Sequence record: MK373792.1
DNA from: Escherichia phage vB_EcoS_VAH1
Reading direction: 5' to 3' (one strand)
Length of the DNA: 64,000 nt
Both the position numbers and the translations under genes were made by a program. Below the pieces are notes generated by a model. The model had not been told where the DNA came from. It made no database searches and saw only the letters and a program-made list of their open reading frames with translations. Below, piece by piece: positions 18,632 to 59,723 of the stretch (within the stretch, counting starts at the first letter, position 1; each line of letters begins with the position of its first letter).

Positions 18632-19060
18632 ATGTTCAATAATGTATTCTCTAAAGAAGCTAACCCAATATTGGTTAATTTTTGGCGTACTCTTCCAGCC
18701 AACCTGTACAATGAGGCTATTAATGCTCTGAAAATATGGTGTGAGAATAATGAAATCTCCTTTGCTTTTAAGGGTGAGATTGAAGAAGCTCCCTGTATTG
18801 GTTTAATTGTGCAGGTAGAGGATGGTCTGGAAGAGATTGTCGGCTGGAAAGAGTTGGATGAAATGGGGTTGGTTTTTGCATTAAACTATAAGCTATTTAT
18901 GCCCAATAAACACCGTATTGTTGTTAATTATAAAACCAGTGAATCTCCGGGCTTTCAAGTTAATGAACATTACGGTTGGTCTTACTCACCGGAAGAAGTA
19001 AATGATGGTATCCAGAAACTTCGTCGTTTTGGTTATCAAATTCCTGGTTTAACCGCCTAA
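18632..19060 (+). CDS. Hypothetical protein, paralog A of a tandem pair
   Basis: 142 aa; shares the motif PCIG...W.EL..MGL..ALN..LF...PGL with the next ORF. Confidence 0.6.
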   Translation: MFNNVFSKEANPILVNFWRTLPANLYNEAINALKIWCENNEISFAFKGEIEEAPCIGLIVQVEDGLEEIVGWKELDEMGLVFALNYKLFMPNKHRIVVNYKTSESPGFQVNEHYGWSYSPEEVNDGIQKLRRFGYQIPGLTA

Positions 19061-19069
19061 GGGGGCACA

Positions 19070-19462
19070 ATGGAACAAGTATATTGGCGTCAGATTGATC
19101 CTAGTTTGGTGAAGCGTGCGGAGAAGCTGCTACAACGTTGGTTGGGGGTAAGACAAGCTTCCTTCACTTTTCCGGAGCAGCAAATAGACGATCCCTGTAT
19201 TGGTGTTTTCCTATCAGGCTACGCTAGGGAATGGGAACTGGATTGGAATGAATTGTCTGCTATGGGTTTAATTGTTGCACTAAATTTCTCTTTGTTCCAT
19301 CCACGTGGTTTTGCCATATGTTGTGTGCCTGATGATGGTTGTTCGCCCCATCTTTTACAGGTGGAAGATGATATTTGGGAGTACACTCCAGATATTCTCA
19401 AAGAAGCTAAAGAACAATTAAATCGTGTTGGGATTTATGTTCCAGGCCTGAATGATGAATGA
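19070..19462 (+). CDS. Hypothetical protein, paralog B of a tandem pair
   Basis: 130 aa; AGGGGG ribosome-binding site; alignable by eye with 18632..19060. Confidence 0.6.
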   Translation: MEQVYWRQIDPSLVKRAEKLLQRWLGVRQASFTFPEQQIDDPCIGVFLSGYAREWELDWNELSAMGLIVALNFSLFHPRGFAICCVPDDGCSPHLLQVEDDIWEYTPDILKEAKEQLNRVGIYVPGLNDE

Positions 19463-19553
19463 TTTTTATTAGCTGAAGTTTGTAATCCGGGCTATTAGTG
19501 CTCGGATTATTACATAATCTTTCTAGTCGATTGACAGTCAAAATAAATTGTCG

Positions 19554-19584
19554 TTGACAATTTGGATGGATTATGTAATAATAT
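19554..19584 (+). promoter_or_regulatory. Putative promoter (TTGACA with AT-rich -10) upstream of the HNH gene
   Basis: Two TTGACA hexamers (about 19531 and 19554); the -10 is imperfect (TAATAA/TAATAT). Confidence 0.35.
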
Positions 19585-19601
19585 ATGTATTGGAGGTGAG
19601 G

Positions 19602-20054
19602 ATGTCATTCACACAGCAAGAACTTTTAGATAACTTCCGATATGAAGATGGTAAGTTATTTAGAACTACAGGAAGAAATGCAGGGAAAGAATGTTGTGTC
19701 TCTACTGGTAACGGATATTATCGTATATCTCTAGGGAATAGGACTATGCTTCGGCATAGAGCAATATTTTTAATGCATCATGGATACTTACCTGATTTAG
19801 TAGATCATGTGAATACTGTAAAAGGTGATGATCGTATTGAAAATCTTAGAGAGCAGACAGTATCCGGTAATCTAAGAAATATCAAATATAAGAAAGGAAT
19901 GCATGTTTACCCTTCTGGTAGTAATAACTGGCAAGTAGTATTTACTATTAACCGTAAACGTATAGTTAAAGGAACATATGACAACTATGAGGTTGCATGT
20001 TCTATGGCCAAGATGTTTAGAGGTCAACTATACGGTAGGGAATCAATCCAGTAA
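19602..20054 (+). CDS. HNH homing endonuclease (HNH_3/AP2-like)
   Basis: Start moved to the ATG at 19602 (GGAGGT ribosome-binding site); HNH region RHRAIFLMHHGYLPDLVDHVN. Confidence 0.8.
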   Translation: MSFTQQELLDNFRYEDGKLFRTTGRNAGKECCVSTGNGYYRISLGNRTMLRHRAIFLMHHGYLPDLVDHVNTVKGDDRIENLREQTVSGNLRNIKYKKGMHVYPSGSNNWQVVFTINRKRIVKGTYDNYEVACSMAKMFRGQLYGRESIQ

Positions 20055-20059
20055 AATTT

Positions 20060-20589
20060 CATTTGCAAGGGAGTATTATTTTATAGTATAATATTCCCAT
20101 AAATGAGAGACATTAGTAAAAATTGATTTTGCTAATTTTTCTTGTTTACAATCCGCGATACGGAACAGTTAGGCTGCCCCATTAAGGGTTGTTTTAACTG
20201 TTACGTGTTAGTTTTTAAACAAATAGTTAATAGAATACTTAGCGATCTGCGTCCCGTAGGAACCCTGGTAAGGCCTCGAAGCAACCTAGATAGAGGTGGT
20301 TGTGAAGTGAGACGGGAGGAGTGAAAAACTCCGAGACGTGATTCTGTAAGTTATATTGCATCTAGTATGAGCTAGTATATGAAGCATTAGGTGAGCAAAT
20401 CTGGCTTAGCGGCCATCCTCAAGGATTTGTGCGGTATAGCAAAGCAGCAGCGCAGCGTGAGAGTGGAAGTTGCCACCCCACTTCAGTATTTGAGATTAAT
20501 TTGTTGAGAAATTGACAGTAACAGTTGTTCTATTCTTTCTGAATAGTCCTAAAGAAAACTTATTTCATTTCCAACACAGGAGTATTGTT
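20060..20589 (+). other. ORF-free, GC-richer structured region (promoter plus long leader; candidate ncRNA, origin or intron remnant)
   Basis: About 520 bp without a credible ORF; promoter-like TTGCAA...TATAAT near 20075-20110; hairpins AACAGTTA/TAACTGTT, GGAGT-GAAAA-ACTCC, GAAGT/ACTTC; direct repeat GAGACG. Confidence 0.4.
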
Positions 20590-23379
20590 GTGTTTTCAAT
20601 CCTACAAGGTCATGCAGGATTTCATCGCGATTTAGCCACGGGCAATTGGCGAGAAGTTAAAGCAGAAGACTATCTTTTTGCTAAAAGATTTTCCTCAAAG
20701 CATCCTGAAGGTAAACCAGCTTCAATGCCCTTCAAGTTTGATGTAATTGATGAAGTTGATCCTCAAACCCTAGTAGAAATGCTTCCTCTTATGAGACGTT
20801 TAACGTCTGACCCTCATATCGTTGCGGTACGAGGTCGATGTCTTGCACCTAAAAATAATGTGCGACGTAAGAAGGGCAACTTTAATGTATCTAACCCAAG
20901 TCATATAATTGCAATGGACGTGGATGGTATTGTAGATACAGGTGGTTGTAACAAGTTTGATCTTGTTGGCATGGCTCGACACATTATTAGAATGTTAAAT
21001 AGTATTAGTGAGGATATGTTTCCTCTTGATGCAGGGTTTATCGCTCATGCATCGTCTTCGGCTGGGCTAAAACCAGGTATCCGAATGCACTTAATACTAG
21101 AATCTAATGTTAAAGTAACTCAGGGTCAAATCAAGTTCTTATTTACATCTATCAATGAAAGTAGTAGACAAAAGTATGGCTTTGATATTGCCGACTTAGC
21201 TTATTACTCTTCCGTACAGCTCCATTACTTTGCAGATCCTTTATTTATTGATGGTATAGTCGATCCGTTTAAAGCGGAGGGTGCTTCACGTCTGGTATTT
21301 GTTAAAGGCTCAAAAGTAAATTTACCTAATAATCTAGTTGACTATGAAACAACTAGAGGAGAGTTTAAAGAGGAATTCTACTCTTTACTCGATCAAATTA
21401 AAGGTAAAAAAGCTGCCTCTGATAAAGTAGAAGAAACTATCAGCGAACTAGAAGAAGCTGAGGATGGAGTGTATCTACGTATTATTCCTAAACTCTATCA
21501 CAGGGCTTTAGAGGATGGTGTTGATTTTGCATGGCTAGAAAAAGAAATCCGTCCAGCCTTATCAGAATATATTGCAACTAAAGATAATAGTCGTAATATT
21601 CAAGACTACTTTAATAACGGTCGTAAACAGGCTCTAAAAGCGTTTGTTAATAATTCTAAGCGTGAGATCCCTGAAGTATTAAAAGGTATCCCCCTTAAAA
21701 AGCTAGAAACTAATTCACTAGAGACCGACAACTTCTTGAAATTAAATACTGTACCACCAGAAGGCTATATGACTTTTGTAAAAGCAAGTCTAGGCACAGG
21801 TAAAACCACGGCGGTTGTGCGTTGGTTAGATTCAGGGGTTATTAAAGGTAATTTCTTAGCAATTACCAATACTAGAGCACTGGTATCTTCAAATGCTAAG
21901 AAATTTAGTGCAGGACAATATGATAAGTCTGTAGATATGCTTAATTTTAAGCGTGGTGCTATTGACCGTATGTCCACAACTATTCACTCTTTGCATAAAT
22001 TCAAGAGTTTTATTGGTCAAATTGATGCAATCTTTATCGATGAATGTGATGCAGTAATGAATGACCTATTATTCGCCCCGGTTGTTAAGCAACGTCGTGA
22101 ATGTATTCAGGTTCTTCGGGATATTCTTGCAACTGCAAAAATCATTATATTATCTGATGGTGATATTAGTGCAGAAACAATTGAAGCATATGGTTCTTTG
22201 ATTGAGTTTGATAAACCGGTCGCATTTTATAATCATCATCGTAAGATGTTGTCAAAAGCTCATGCTTATGAGTTCCCTGATGAATCTAGTATTTGGGTTG
22301 CACTTCAAACATCACTAGAGATGGGTGAGAAATCTATTCTAGTATCTGATTGCGGCCCAGATGAGCTGAATGAGAAAGGTATGGCATTACGTCGTAATAC
22401 GGGTGCATTAGTTAAAGAAATCCATTCAAACTCTACATCTGATGTGGATATTAGACGTATTCTGGATTACACAACTAATGAGCTAATTGATCAACAAATT
22501 GATTGCTTATTATGTAGTCCATCCGTAACGAGTGGTGTTGACTTCAACTATTTTGATAACGTATTCGTTATTACTAGAACCAGTAACCAGGCGCCGAACA
22601 TGCGTTTTCAAGCAATCAGGCGCGACCGTGGTGCTCAGAATATCTATTATTTTATTGATAAATCCACTAGTGGATTCTCCGCAGGTTCTGAGCAATATAA
22701 CATTGATGAAGGTTGGCTCGAATTAGCACAGCAGTTATATGCACGTCGTAGGGAATTAGAGTCTAGGAACTATACTAGTACCTTACGCTATTACTTGCTT
22801 GATCAGGGAGCAACTATTGATATTTTCAGTGAAAGCTGGGGAACTATTGAAGGTGCTGGTAAAGAGTACACAGAAGAGCGAATCAAAGCTATTCTGCACT
22901 CAACTCCTGATTATTGTGCTCCACGTCATGCGGATGCGTATGAAGCTAAACTACTTCTTGTTCGCTATTATCATCTTGAGTCTATTAAAGATGTAACAGT
23001 TGAGCATGTTGAACAATATATCAAAGATAAGCCGAATGATCGAGCTGCATTCTTCCATAAGATGCACGAGATGTTCTGGGAAGATATTAAGAAGTGTTCA
23101 AATGTGACCATTAAACCATTCATAGAAGCTCTGAAAGGTAAGAAGAAGGACTTCTTCCTTAAAACAGGTCAGAGTGCTAACCCAAAATATGCTAGAATGT
23201 ATCTTGGTATGATGGGTATTGGTAAAGATATGAACACGGAGAATATCGTAGACTGGTACAGAACCTATTGTAAAATCGAATGTATGCCAATTCCTTTCAA
23301 ATTTATGACAGAGGAAGAGAAGGCTATGGCAGAAGAAGCAATGTCAGAGCTAGGTGCTAGAAATGACAGTGAAGAATAA
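20590..23379 (+). CDS. Large P-loop NTPase, putative replication origin-binding or helicase-like protein
   Basis: Track ORF 20512..23379; likely start is the in-frame GTG at 20590 (GGAG 7 nt upstream); Walker A SLGTGKTT about aa 420. Confidence 0.55.
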   Translation: MFSILQGHAGFHRDLATGNWREVKAEDYLFAKRFSSKHPEGKPASMPFKFDVIDEVDPQTLVEMLPLMRRLTSDPHIVAVRGRCLAPKNNVRRKKGNFNVSNPSHIIAMDVDGIVDTGGCNKFDLVGMARHIIRMLNSISEDMFPLDAGFIAHASSSAGLKPGIRMHLILESNVKVTQGQIKFLFTSINESSRQKYGFDIADLAYYSSVQLHYFADPLFIDGIVDPFKAEGASRLVFVKGSKVNLPNNLVDYETTRGEFKEEFYSLLDQIKGKKAASDKVEETISELEEAEDGVYLRIIPKLYHRALEDGVDFAWLEKEIRPALSEYIATKDNSRNIQDYFNNGRKQALKAFVNNSKREIPEVLKGIPLKKLETNSLETDNFLKLNTVPPEGYMTFVKASLGTGKTTAVVRWLDSGVIKGNFLAITNTRALVSSNAKKFSAGQYDKSVDMLNFKRGAIDRMSTTIHSLHKFKSFIGQIDAIFIDECDAVMNDLLFAPVVKQRRECIQVLRDILATAKIIILSDGDISAETIEAYGSLIEFDKPVAFYNHHRKMLSKAHAYEFPDESSIWVALQTSLEMGEKSILVSDCGPDELNEKGMALRRNTGALVKEIHSNSTSDVDIRRILDYTTNELIDQQIDCLLCSPSVTSGVDFNYFDNVFVITRTSNQAPNMRFQAIRRDRGAQNIYYFIDKSTSGFSAGSEQYNIDEGWLELAQQLYARRRELESRNYTSTLRYYLLDQGATIDIFSESWGTIEGAGKEYTEERIKAILHSTPDYCAPRHADAYEAKLLLVRYYHLESIKDVTVEHVEQYIKDKPNDRAAFFHKMHEMFWEDIKKCSNVTIKPFIEALKGKKKDFFLKTGQSANPKYARMYLGMMGIGKDMNTENIVDWYRTYCKIECMPIPFKFMTEEEKAMAEEAMSELGARNDSEE

Positions 23380-58331: not shown

Positions 58332-59723
58332 TTAACCACCTGTTACAGTAATCTGTTTAGTACCTTTAACTCCAGAACCATCTTTAGCAGTAGCTTCTAC
58401 AGTTACTGCACCAGTTTTACTAGCATGTGCTGTTAATAGTCCTGTTGCACTGATAGTAGCTGCATCGCCAGCAGTAATAGCCCAGGTAACATCCTTATTC
58501 CTTGCGGAAGAAGGAGTAACTTCAACGCTCATCTGAAGAGTTTGTCCAGTCCGAACAGAAGTAGCATCACCGGCAGATTTAACAGTAATTGCGGTTACAG
58601 CATCAATAGCACCATCACCATTAACAATCAAATTATTAATAGTTGTTTTGGTATATTTACTAGAGAAGCCCAAGTAACCCTCATCACCAGCATCCAGATC
58701 TGACGGAATAGCCTTAAATTCTACCGAAGTACCAAGTACATCATCAGTCTCAATAGTAGGAATATTAACGTGTGCCTGTTTAGCTACCAGAATAGCGGCA
58801 GGACGTTCATCATCGTATTCACCACCAAGTACCAGAGCGATTTCGAAGCGGTTAACTACTTTCAGAGTTTTGATAAGATCTTTATACAGTTCCATAGAAC
58901 CAAGAGATTTATCATTCAGATAGGCAGTTAATGAACCAGTTAATTCAAAAGCACCAGTAAAGGAACCAATTGGAATAGTAACACGGGACATTACATTAGG
59001 TGTTAGGTAAGTAATGTTGTTGTTAATAGTAAAAGTACCACCGGTAATTGGTATGTCATAAGACTTATTGGTATCCATATCCTTGATCTTCAAGACGGTT
59101 AGTTTGTTCTTAATGTAAGAACCCTGGATAGTCATATAAGTTTCATCATCAATACCTATTTCATCCGGATCAAATGGTTGCTCATCCAGCGGGATTAACT
59201 GGTTACCATTACCAGACCAAGTTACACGACCAATATCTTCGATATCAACGTTAACTTCTGCCTGATTAATCTGACAGGAATCAATATAACTCCATGCTTT
59301 ATCAGTCAGAATATAAATATGTAACATTGCTAACTCATGATAGGAGTTATCTTTGAAGTTAACCATGAAGTTAGTTGCGTTATTGTGTGCCCCTGTATTA
59401 CCTTCTAAGTTAATAGCTTTACCACTAGAAAGTGCATGCCATAACATATAGTCAGGAACAATTTGTTTGCTAGTAGTTTTATCTTTATACGGTAGGATGT
59501 AAGTAGAGAAACTCCACTCAGCTGCGTTTAAAGAATCGTTAAAACGTTTAGAACCACGAGTTGGACGCGGACCAGCTTCATTAACAGTAATATCTGTTGA
59601 GTTACTGTCCTGACCCCAAGAAATATCATCCTGAACTAGAATCTCTTGCGTGTTGGTCTTATTATGACCAGTCTTAACCGTAGACACGAAGATTCGAGTA
59701 TTACGTAATAGTTGTAAAGACAT
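58332..59723 (-). CDS. Major tail tube protein (pb6-like) with C-terminal Ig-like domain
   Basis: 463 aa; C-terminal Big_2-like segment (...VTWAITAGDAATISATGLLTAHASKTGAVTVEATAKDG...). Confidence 0.75.
   Translation of the reverse strand: MSLQLLRNTRIFVSTVKTGHNKTNTQEILVQDDISWGQDSNSTDITVNEAGPRPTRGSKRFNDSLNAAEWSFSTYILPYKDKTTSKQIVPDYMLWHALSSGKAINLEGNTGAHNNATNFMVNFKDNSYHELAMLHIYILTDKAWSYIDSCQINQAEVNVDIEDIGRVTWSGNGNQLIPLDEQPFDPDEIGIDDETYMTIQGSYIKNKLTVLKIKDMDTNKSYDIPITGGTFTINNNITYLTPNVMSRVTIPIGSFTGAFELTGSLTAYLNDKSLGSMELYKDLIKTLKVVNRFEIALVLGGEYDDERPAAILVAKQAHVNIPTIETDDVLGTSVEFKAIPSDLDAGDEGYLGFSSKYTKTTINNLIVNGDGAIDAVTAITVKSAGDATSVRTGQTLQMSVEVTPSSARNKDVTWAITAGDAATISATGLLTAHASKTGAVTVEATAKDGSGVKGTKQITVTGG

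Follow-up and report, generated by a model that had tools for sequence, protein, structure and literature searches.

A conserved, elaborately folded RNA as the candidate 5′ leader of the T5.108/D2 helicase mRNA in T5-like phages

The 64,000-nucleotide stretch of Escherichia phage vB_EcoS_VAH1 analyzed here (record MK373792.1, hereafter the window) contains, at positions 20055-20589, a gene-free segment located between the gene of an HNH endonuclease and the gene of the T5.108/D2 helicase. We propose, with a probability of roughly 55%, that this segment encodes a conserved and elaborately folded plus-strand RNA of about 430-490 nucleotides (nt), which forms the 5′ leader of the helicase mRNA and acts in cis on the amount of helicase. 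Comparison with related phages shows that its promoter is conserved, that it holds no conserved open reading frame (ORF), that its helices are kept by compensatory changes and that the fold is specific to one strand. Given that around 490 nt would be transcribed before the helicase start codon is reached, the fold must at least initially be the 5′ leader of the helicase mRNA. In our view, it constitutes a new family within the known kind of large, structured leader or non-coding RNAs, unusual in its hypervariable, cassette-like core and in its constant association with a replication-initiation gene. An earlier note, made from the letters of the window alone, had proposed three possibilities for this region, namely a structured 5′ leader or non-coding RNA, a replication origin or the remnant of a self-splicing intron, and its interpretation is partly supported: the first of these proposals agrees with the conserved promoter and length, the compensatory changes and the strand-specific G-U pairs described below.

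The phage of the window is T5-like (Tequintavirus), and the best matches for 19500-20700 are the Escherichia phages JLBYU40 and BB1, with 98.7-98.8% identity. Transcription of the segment would be driven by a strong sigma-70 early promoter on the plus strand (20063-20092), with the -35 hexamer TTGCAA at 20063-68 and the -10 hexamer TATAAT at 20087-92, which agrees with the consensus at 10 of 12 positions. The earlier note had seen a promoter-like element here, and the comparison bears it out, as both hexamers are invariant in eight divergent relatives, down to a Pectobacterium phage, and the records of T5 (AY543070, 58999-59073) and AKFV33 both annotate a promoter at the homologous position. 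The predicted start of transcription is at about 20099. The transcript would then begin with AUAAAUGAGAGAC, a start of the T5 type, which we take to resemble the starts of other T5 promoter transcripts, for example that of N25. Our scans found no terminator between the fold and the helicase gene, and no promoter-like site on the minus strand within 20100-20590.

The absence of a credible ORF, also remarked on in the earlier note, is confirmed. All the ORFs inside the gap are short, the longest having 60 amino acids; neither of the two window ORFs in the gap has a Pfam match, and none is kept in place and frame among relatives, where ORFs of 30-77 amino acids vary in strand, frame and position from one lineage to another. 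The segment had likewise been described as GC-richer, and so it is, although the rise is modest: the GC content is 0.415-0.455 at 20200-20499, compared with 0.33-0.36 in the sequence immediately before it and 0.36-0.42 within the helicase gene. In the same interval, the GC skew is +0.25 to +0.30, corresponding to an excess of G over C in the transcript. A/T-rich stretches are found at 20100-20145 and in the arms of a long duplex described below (P3), while the center is GC-richer.

The element is common among the relatives of T5 and does not depend on the HNH gene. A BLAST search with 20055-20590 matched 445 phage records, mostly without an HNH gene. Query positions 33-536 are common to the HNH-free phages, and only the first 32 nt travel with the HNH insertion cassette; the HNH-containing query is covered by just 22 of 437 matching records, with T5, bastian, EC100 and TrudiGerster being examples without the HNH gene. 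The cassette extends over approximately 19463-20104, including the HNH gene, and replaces the promoter region too. It carries a terminator-like hairpin at 19486-19511 and a near-consensus promoter (TTGACA at 19554, with a TG-extended -10), and it brings its own version of the promoter of the RNA, in place of the one that in cassette-free phages reads TTGC-N17-TGnTATAAT. The HNH gene itself (19602-20054, plus strand) is free-standing and encodes a homing endonuclease of 150 amino acids with a match to Pfam HNH_3 (2.5e-11) and to the PHROG class of HNH endonucleases; it is neighboring context, outside the RNA element.

In every Demerecviridae lineage examined (T5, the Epseptimaviruses, Yersinia phiR2-01, Klebsiella Sealy, Proteus PL1, three Vibrio phages and Pectobacterium DU_PP_V), an ORF-free gap of about 600-860 nt precedes the helicase gene. 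In 37 loci, the distance between the motif of the second hairpin of the fold (P2) and the ribosome-binding site stays within a range of 5 nt (577-581 when positions are counted in a fixed frame). The block GAUACGGAACAGUUnGGCUGCCCCAU is invariant, and the block GGCUUAGCGGCC nearly so, in the phages from T5 to those of Pectobacterium, the sole variant lineage being L009, with GACUUAGCGGUC. We consider homology to be solid for Tequintavirus, Epseptimavirus, Yersinia phiR2-01, the Klebsiella phages and Pectobacterium DU_PP_V and L009, and Pectobacterium My1 is probably a homologue too. Beyond these, a profile built with nhmmer from 36 T5-like sequences extends only to the Klebsiella phages, and a metagenome scan with the P2 motif gave genuine matches only on contigs similar to T5 or to Klebsiella phages, 17 of its 26 hits being due to chance.

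In more distant phages, the relationship is less direct. The Providencia phages PR1 and PSTCR5 and the Proteus phages have a unit resembling the P6/P6a stem described below at the equivalent distance, as judged from reading of the motif, and PR1 additionally has a matching helix P4 and the motifs GUGCGAAG and CUAGCAAU, as in Klebsiella phages. The Providencia and Proteus leaders are thus probable homologues, although our covariance models did not reach them. In Proteus PL1 (locus L041, 1433-1466; also loci L076 and L077), the leader and the start codon of the helicase are separated by a near-consensus sigma-70 promoter, TTGACA-18-TATAAT. Vibrio phages carry at the same place a leader that is long, highly conserved and, in some of them, swapped at its center; we regard it as analogous and not as an established homologue. 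For instance, Vibrio phage VF16 (locus L042, 1060-1720) and its relatives have an ORF-free leader of 650 nt that is 94-100% conserved in 43 of 52 matching records, and in the phages Wyman and Pontus, only the flanks of the leader are shared, the center being replaced. Several Vibrio records call small “hypothetical proteins” within this 650-nt leader.

The main support for an RNA comes from the pattern of changes among relatives, obtained by folding and comparative analysis across T5-like phages, an approach that the earlier note had suggested and that revealed a conserved, covarying structure. For 13 diverse sequences, RNAalifold predicted 71 base pairs, 27 of them with compensatory changes. 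In a pair-count test, 95.2% of the cells can pair, versus 85.9% in shuffled controls (none of 500 reached the observed value) and 37-46% when partners are slid by one to three columns. Similarly, 28 of the 71 pairs have changed on both sides (17.9 shuffled, 8-12 slid), and the covariation score is 0.365, versus 0.196 for shuffled and 0.07-0.10 for slid partners. It should be considered that part of the structure comes from the very sequences on which it was then scored. Since MAFFT misaligns the center of the RNA between its two types (A and B, see below) when applied to all 38 unique sequences, giving a poor consensus fold, the types were also analyzed separately, as groups of near-identical sequences whose alignment is secure. 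Among 131 predicted pairs in each case, type A alone (16 sequences) gave 7 compensatory pairs, with non-canonical cells in only 5 pairs, and type B alone (15 sequences) gave 12, with non-canonical cells in only 8 pairs.

These changes also indicate the strand. The alignment contains 129 G-U cells, and reading the opposite strand cuts pairing from 95.2% to 82.0%; therefore, the fold belongs to the transcribed (plus) strand. Moreover, in seven of eight lineages the plus strand reaches a lower folding energy than the minus strand, and in the window, the plus strand of 20099-20592 folds with z = -3.76. A covariance model made from type A only (R1) found the unit of helices P5-Pd-P6-P7 at full length in Pectobacterium and Klebsiella phages (E 0.001-0.006), and a second-round model (R2) recovered Yersinia phiR2-01 (E 9e-5); neither model detected the Providencia, Proteus or Vibrio leaders.

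The fold comprises around a dozen helices, all on the plus strand. It opens with P1 (20100-20148), a 5′-terminal, A/U-rich hairpin of 21 base pairs (bp) that begins at about +2 of the predicted transcript and is followed by a U-rich run (-16 kcal/mol, z = -5.6). P1 is kept with a different sequence in DU_PP_V, Sealy and PR1; the U-run that T5-like phages have after it is weak in PR1, and Sealy lacks it. The hairpin is annotated as a terminator in one related record (Shivani), and our terminator scan did not call it because its stem is A/U-rich. In bastian (locus L004, ~640-740), phiR2-01 (locus L039, ~955-1052) and three further loci (L015, L023 and L038), the 3′ side of P1 contains an insertion of 97 nt flanked by duplicated TTTTTCTT and with a hairpin of its own (GGAUUUACGG...CCCGUAAAU); each of those loci has a single copy of the insertion, which the window lacks. 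The irregular hairpin P2 (20148-20192) follows, holding the invariant block GAUACGGAACAGUUAGGCUGCCCCAU (20157-20182). From T5 through to the Pectobacterium phages, this 25-nt block does not change, and P2 shows compensatory changes in Klebsiella phages, from GG/CC to AG/CU and from GCAU/AUGC to GUAU/AUAC.

The central domain is closed by P3, an imperfect duplex of about 32 bp between 20195-20233 and 20486-20527, the core of which pairs at 10-14 of 14 positions in six lineages, with exchanges between G-C and A-U. Here, the earlier note had named a hairpin, AACAGTTA/TAACTGTT, which is present in the sequence of the window but is not a conserved pairing, being replaced in relatives by the long-range P3: TAACTGTTAC pairs with GTAACAGTT at 20518-26, a pairing in which relatives have exchanged G-C for A-U. 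Within the domain, P4 (20242-20252 with 20450-20458; GCG-AU-CUGCGU/GCGCAG-CGU) has an AU bulge, which is AG in L009. It is fully paired in 13 sequences, with both sides changing in six of its nine pairs, and its variants include CUGCG/CGCAG, CUACA/UGUAG, CUGUG/CACAG, CCAUA/UAUGG and CUAGAA/UUCUAG. The stem P5a (CCCGU at 20253-57, ACGGG at 20312-16) encloses two less well-defined hairpins (to 20316) and occurs as CCCGU/ACGGG, as CCCAU/AUGGG (within type A), as UUCGU/GCGAA and as GCGG/CCGC. Next comes Pc (20318-32, GGAG-UGAAAAA-CUCC), a hairpin that had been noticed previously in the window and that proves to be conserved with compensatory changes, its lineage variants being GGAG/CUCC, AGAG/CUCU, GGUC/GACC, GGGG/CCCU and UGC/GCA. 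Conserved single-stranded nucleotides, GAGA(A/C)GUG, follow at 20333-40; (G/A)AGA(A/C)GUG trails each Pc variant, with the exception of type B, which has GCGAAUGG.

A three-way junction occupies 20350-20440 and is formed by P5 (20350-60 with 20430-40), the hairpin Pd (20362-75) and P6 (20396-402 with 20423-29), the latter capped by the near-invariant hairpin P6a (20403-14), that is, the GGCUUAGCGGCC block. P5 varies within type B between GUACAG/CUGUAU and GUCCAG/CUGGAU. The outer stem of P6 offers the clearest example of compensation, as a script check found eight different sequences in ten representatives, all of them fully complementary and at equivalent positions. Its versions are CAAAUCU/GGAUUUG, AUAGAAUC/GGUUCUAU, UCAGAAUC/GGUUCUGA, AUAGAAAU/AUUUCUAU, AUUGAGG/CCUCAAU, AUACGGG/CUCGUAU, CCACAU/GUGUGG, CACCU/AGGUG and CCACG/CGUGG; the DU_PP_V pair GUGCGGGU/ACCCUGCAC carries a bulge and was excluded from the count. 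When P3, P4, P5, P5a, Pc and P7 are written out in the same manner for up to ten representatives, they too pair at equivalent positions.

P7 (GAGUGG at 20461-66, CCACUU at 20478-83) has an 11-nt loop, AAGUUGCCACC. The earlier note had proposed a hairpin GAAGT/ACTTC at this place; the hairpin exists, but its register was wrong, since the covariation fits GAGUGG/CCACUU. Within type A, a U-A pair of P7 is exchanged for G-C (GUGG/CCAC to GGGG/CCCC), and six more lineage variants pair fully. Outside the closed domain, P8 (20530-20546, CUAUUC-UUUCU-GAAUAG; z = -5.7) occurs as CUUUCC/GGAAAG in DU_PP_V and as CUAUC/GAUAG in Sealy, and it is followed by an A/U-rich single-stranded linker. Finally, a weak, putative start-site hairpin, AACACAG/UUGUGUU (20573-20594, z = -0.8), overlaps with its 5′ arm the first bases of the ribosome-binding site AGGAG, the rest of which lies mostly in the loop, and contains the GTG start in its 3′ arm. 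A pairing of Pc or Pd with the first helicase codons was also considered and dropped, as it does not covary.

The center of the RNA exists in two sharply different types within Tequintavirus, type A including the window and type B including T5. Their identity is only 32-44% across 20243-20390 and 38-60% through 20488, whereas, for the same two phages, identity reaches 97% in the upstream genes, 100% in the 5′ part of the RNA and around 88% in the helicase gene. The type A center is similar to the version found in Pectobacterium phages and the type B center to the versions of Yersinia and Klebsiella phages. Judging from these identities, the center (20243-20488; compare locus L118, T5 59190-59440) behaves as a swappable cassette. 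In every T5-like locus of either type that we sampled, the type of the RNA matches the allele of the helicase.

The helicase gene (20590-23379, plus strand) starts with GTG at 20590, preceded by the ribosome-binding site at 20579-83, and encodes a protein of 929 amino acids that corresponds to T5.108, belongs to PHROG 3712 and carries the database label “replication origin binding protein”. Its residues 394-533 match the Pfam domain Herpes_ori_bp, and a bipolar helicase “D2” with the same domain and span has been reported (PMC3632103). The N-terminal domain (residues 1-390, 20590-21760) contains the motifs AMDVDG and SSSAG.KPG.R.H, invariant in Escherichia, Klebsiella, Proteus, Vibrio and Pectobacterium phages, which by eye resemble the metal-binding motifs of archaeo-eukaryotic primase (prim-pol) domains. 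For this domain, we found no credible match in Pfam (only a sub-threshold DUF445) or in the PDB (one marginal match, E = 0.036), and a single-sequence AlphaFold model was unusable (pLDDT, its confidence score, 36).

How could such a leader work? Host RNA polymerase would start at the T5 early promoter, around 20099, and read approximately 490 nt before reaching the helicase start. Along the RNA, P1 comes first, then P2, then P3, which closes a central domain of about 250 nt (P4, P5a, Pc, P5, Pd, P6/P6a and P7), and lastly P8. The RNA would then probably set helicase production in cis, through the stability of the message or through its translation. For example, the flush 5′ hairpin P1 may protect the transcript from 5′-end-dependent decay. 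P3 is long enough to be a plausible substrate for RNase III, which by cutting it would detach the folded domain from the message of the helicase; such processing may free a discrete RNA of about 290-430 nt (approximately 290 nt for a cut in P3). The invariant loops of the P2 core, P6a and GAGAAGUG probably make contacts, either with a protein or within a tertiary fold. There are precedents for structures acting in cis within the 5′ leaders of early or replication genes, such as the lambda N leader, the early RNase III sites of T7 and the operators of T4 genes 32 and 43. As in these cases, RNase III could act on a long duplex, and control by a replication protein of its own message is a known theme. 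In contrast, those elements are single hairpins or pseudoknots of approximately 30-100 nt, while the fold described here has about a dozen helices, some 430 nt and invariant internal loops, its processing and protein binding being putative.

Several observations weigh against our explanation, the first two of them against a role purely in cis. The first is the size of the leader, as around 430 nt and a dozen helices are far above what is found in the known phage translational operators. Secondly, the promoter of the Proteus phages located between the RNA and the helicase gene would allow the helicase to be expressed without the leader, which argues for a role of the RNA beyond control in cis. 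Thirdly, the start-site hairpin is 90% paired, but its changes are one-sided and none are compensatory, so that direct gating of translation is unproven. In addition, the single-sequence z-scores of the relatives are uneven, ranging from -0.3 to -3.8 (Sealy -0.3, PR1 -0.5, My1 -1.3), and the real support for the fold is therefore comparative; the compared sequences are themselves phylogenetically related, and the independent compensatory events are fewer than the cells counted. We also inferred the start of transcription, the ends of the RNA and any processing of it from sequence.

It is possible, if unlikely, that the RNA is instead an independent non-coding RNA, whose central domain would be released by processing (by RNase III at P3 or by RNase E in the A/U-rich linker) and would act in trans. 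Possible roles are those of a helicase cofactor or specificity partner, of a decoy that diverts a host factor or defense system, or of a structural RNA similar to other large RNAs of phages. The RNA has the size and complexity expected of large stand-alone RNAs, its internal loops are invariant across lineages, and both the double-stranded-RNA-like P3 and the A/U-rich linker flank the domain. The separate promoter that Proteus phages give to the helicase gene downstream of the RNA points in the same direction, and a center with two swappable alleles within one genus is how specificity determinants behave. ROOL, GOLLD, OLE and raiA offer a parallel, as they are also several hundred nt long and phage-borne, with many covarying helices, conserved junction nucleotides and a function that is not evident from their context. 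ROOL and GOLLD usually stand alone near tRNA genes. The T5 RNA differs from these four in having no Rfam match, in being fixed upstream of one gene and in its restriction to Demerecviridae. Indeed, it is always found upstream of the same gene and never elsewhere, no terminator or defined 3′ end was found, and no partner has been identified, all of which speak against independence.

A related proposal, which we consider rather improbable, is that the RNA is a dedicated partner of the helicase: the central domain would be bound by the enzyme and would either mark the place where replication starts, through an R-loop, or serve as an RNA cofactor or primer, with types A and B representing matched pairs of RNA and protein specificity. 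A structured RNA located directly upstream of, and inherited together with, the gene of a nucleic-acid enzyme is also seen in retrons (msr-msd) and in the RNAs of DRT2 and DRT9. The partner here is a superfamily 2 helicase with an uncharacterized N-terminal domain and not a reverse transcriptase, so the likeness is one of analogy only.

Doubtful as well is a transcript-primed origin, in which the RNA would form a persistent R-loop with its template and be processed into a primer, or in which the R-loop would be the entry site of the helicase. The element lies directly upstream of the gene of a UL9-like candidate initiator helicase and at a central map position, around 49% of the T5 genome; a strong promoter lies approximately 500 nt upstream, its transcript is G-rich (skew +0.25 to +0.30), and RNA type and helicase allele are co-inherited. 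An origin of this sort would resemble oriF and oriG of T4. It would also recall RNA II of ColE1, another folded RNA of about 500 nt with a strong promoter, located beside replication functions, in which the multi-stem fold is functional and variant alleles act as specificity cassettes. Here, however, no antisense promoter like that of RNA I was found, neither an origin nor an RNase H transition site is known at this locus, the RNA continues into a protein-coding gene, and the two RNAs share no similarity in sequence or in Rfam. Furthermore, no sequence mark of a transition from RNA to DNA is seen, the positive GC skew is also present outside the segment, and a covarying three-way junction would be unnecessary for a mere R-loop. 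The published evidence on T5 origins is contradictory: older reports, as cited by a preprint (10.1101/866236), place the origins of its DNA “near the centre”, while the strand bias of recombitrons suggests that T5 replicates predominantly in one direction, from one end (PMC10055335), and this bias counts against an origin at the element.

A classical DNA origin or protein-binding region, with sites for the helicase or for the DnaA of the host and an unwinding element, appears very unlikely, and the sequence features do not favor the replication origin proposed in the earlier note. The label of the adjacent gene does suggest an origin, the invariant blocks of 25 and 12 nt could be protein sites, and there are A/T-rich stretches at 20100-20145 and in the P3 arms. 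Nevertheless, we found no iterons, only weak two-copy repeats, and no site resembling the DnaA box TTATNCACA (one mismatch allowed) in 19817-21138, and the center is GC-richer. Above all, the changes among relatives preserve complementarity and not sequence, and they include strand-specific G-U pairs, neither of which is predicted by DNA-binding sites.

It is scarcely credible that the segment is a plain spacer with a promoter, its structure being an artefact of relatedness and of alignment-guided prediction. Such a view could appeal to the unremarkable z-scores of some lineages and to the partial derivation of the structure from the scored sequences, but a spacer would not hold its length within 5 nt at a sequence turnover above 60%, nor keep eight fully complementary versions of one stem, nor exceed slid partners in pairing by 95% to about 40%; 600-860 nt of spacer would not persist across a family in tightly packed genomes. 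As for a reading as a degenerate self-splicing intron, or as an RNA of the HNH endonuclease, the large folded RNA does adjoin an HNH gene in this window, as group I introns and HEARO (omega RNA) can, but we reject it, since the RNA is intact in hundreds of HNH-free phages, the HNH cassette lies upstream of the promoter, the element sits between complete genes and downstream of its own promoter with no exon halves, no intron or HEARO model matches it even at E<=10, and the HNH protein is a 150-amino-acid HNH_3 protein and not of the IscB type.

The novelty of the family is suggested by searches of databases and of the literature. The Rfam/Infernal scan suggested in the earlier note retrieved no group I intron or other non-coding RNA family: against the 4227 models of Rfam 15, the window and 11 related loci gave only chance-level matches (mir-3938, a snoRNA and the like), far below the gathering scores, and no match to riboswitch or cis-regulatory classes or to the ROOL, GOLLD and OLE models. 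Group I, group II, GIR1 and HEARO models had no match at E<=10 in 19950-20700 or at E<=0.5 in the 11 related loci, and ARAGORN and Rfam found no tRNA or tmRNA in 19900-20700. Full-text searches of the literature for the T5 origin, T5 non-coding RNAs and the invariant sequences returned no description of the element, and the T5-like records that we inspected annotate over it at most a promoter, a terminator at P1 or spurious small ORFs. Elsewhere in the window, there are two tRNA genes on the minus strand (1108-1179 and 1683-1754, Rfam gathering score), and directly upstream of the HNH cassette lies a pair of paralogous tandem genes (18632-19462; 142 and 130 amino acids), both of PHROG 2502 and, for the one that was scanned, with a DUF7415 domain.

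T5 has served as a model phage for decades, and biocontrol makes wide use of its relatives; even so, an element of around 0.5 kb in their genomes has, to judge from the records and literature searched, gone undescribed. Its recognition would add a large, covariation-supported class of RNA to phage biology, one that could be studied at once in an existing experimental system and in hundreds of natural variants, among which the two interchangeable central cassettes amount to a natural specificity experiment. On the practical side, annotation pipelines should cease to call “hypothetical proteins” within the element. Its fixed place before the gene of a candidate initiator helicase offers a handle on the control and start of T5 replication and on the location of the origin. 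Moreover, T5 is a classical model phage for which no origin defined at the sequence level is known, and its replication would turn out to include an RNA-dependent initiation step if the RNA were indeed a dedicated partner of the helicase.

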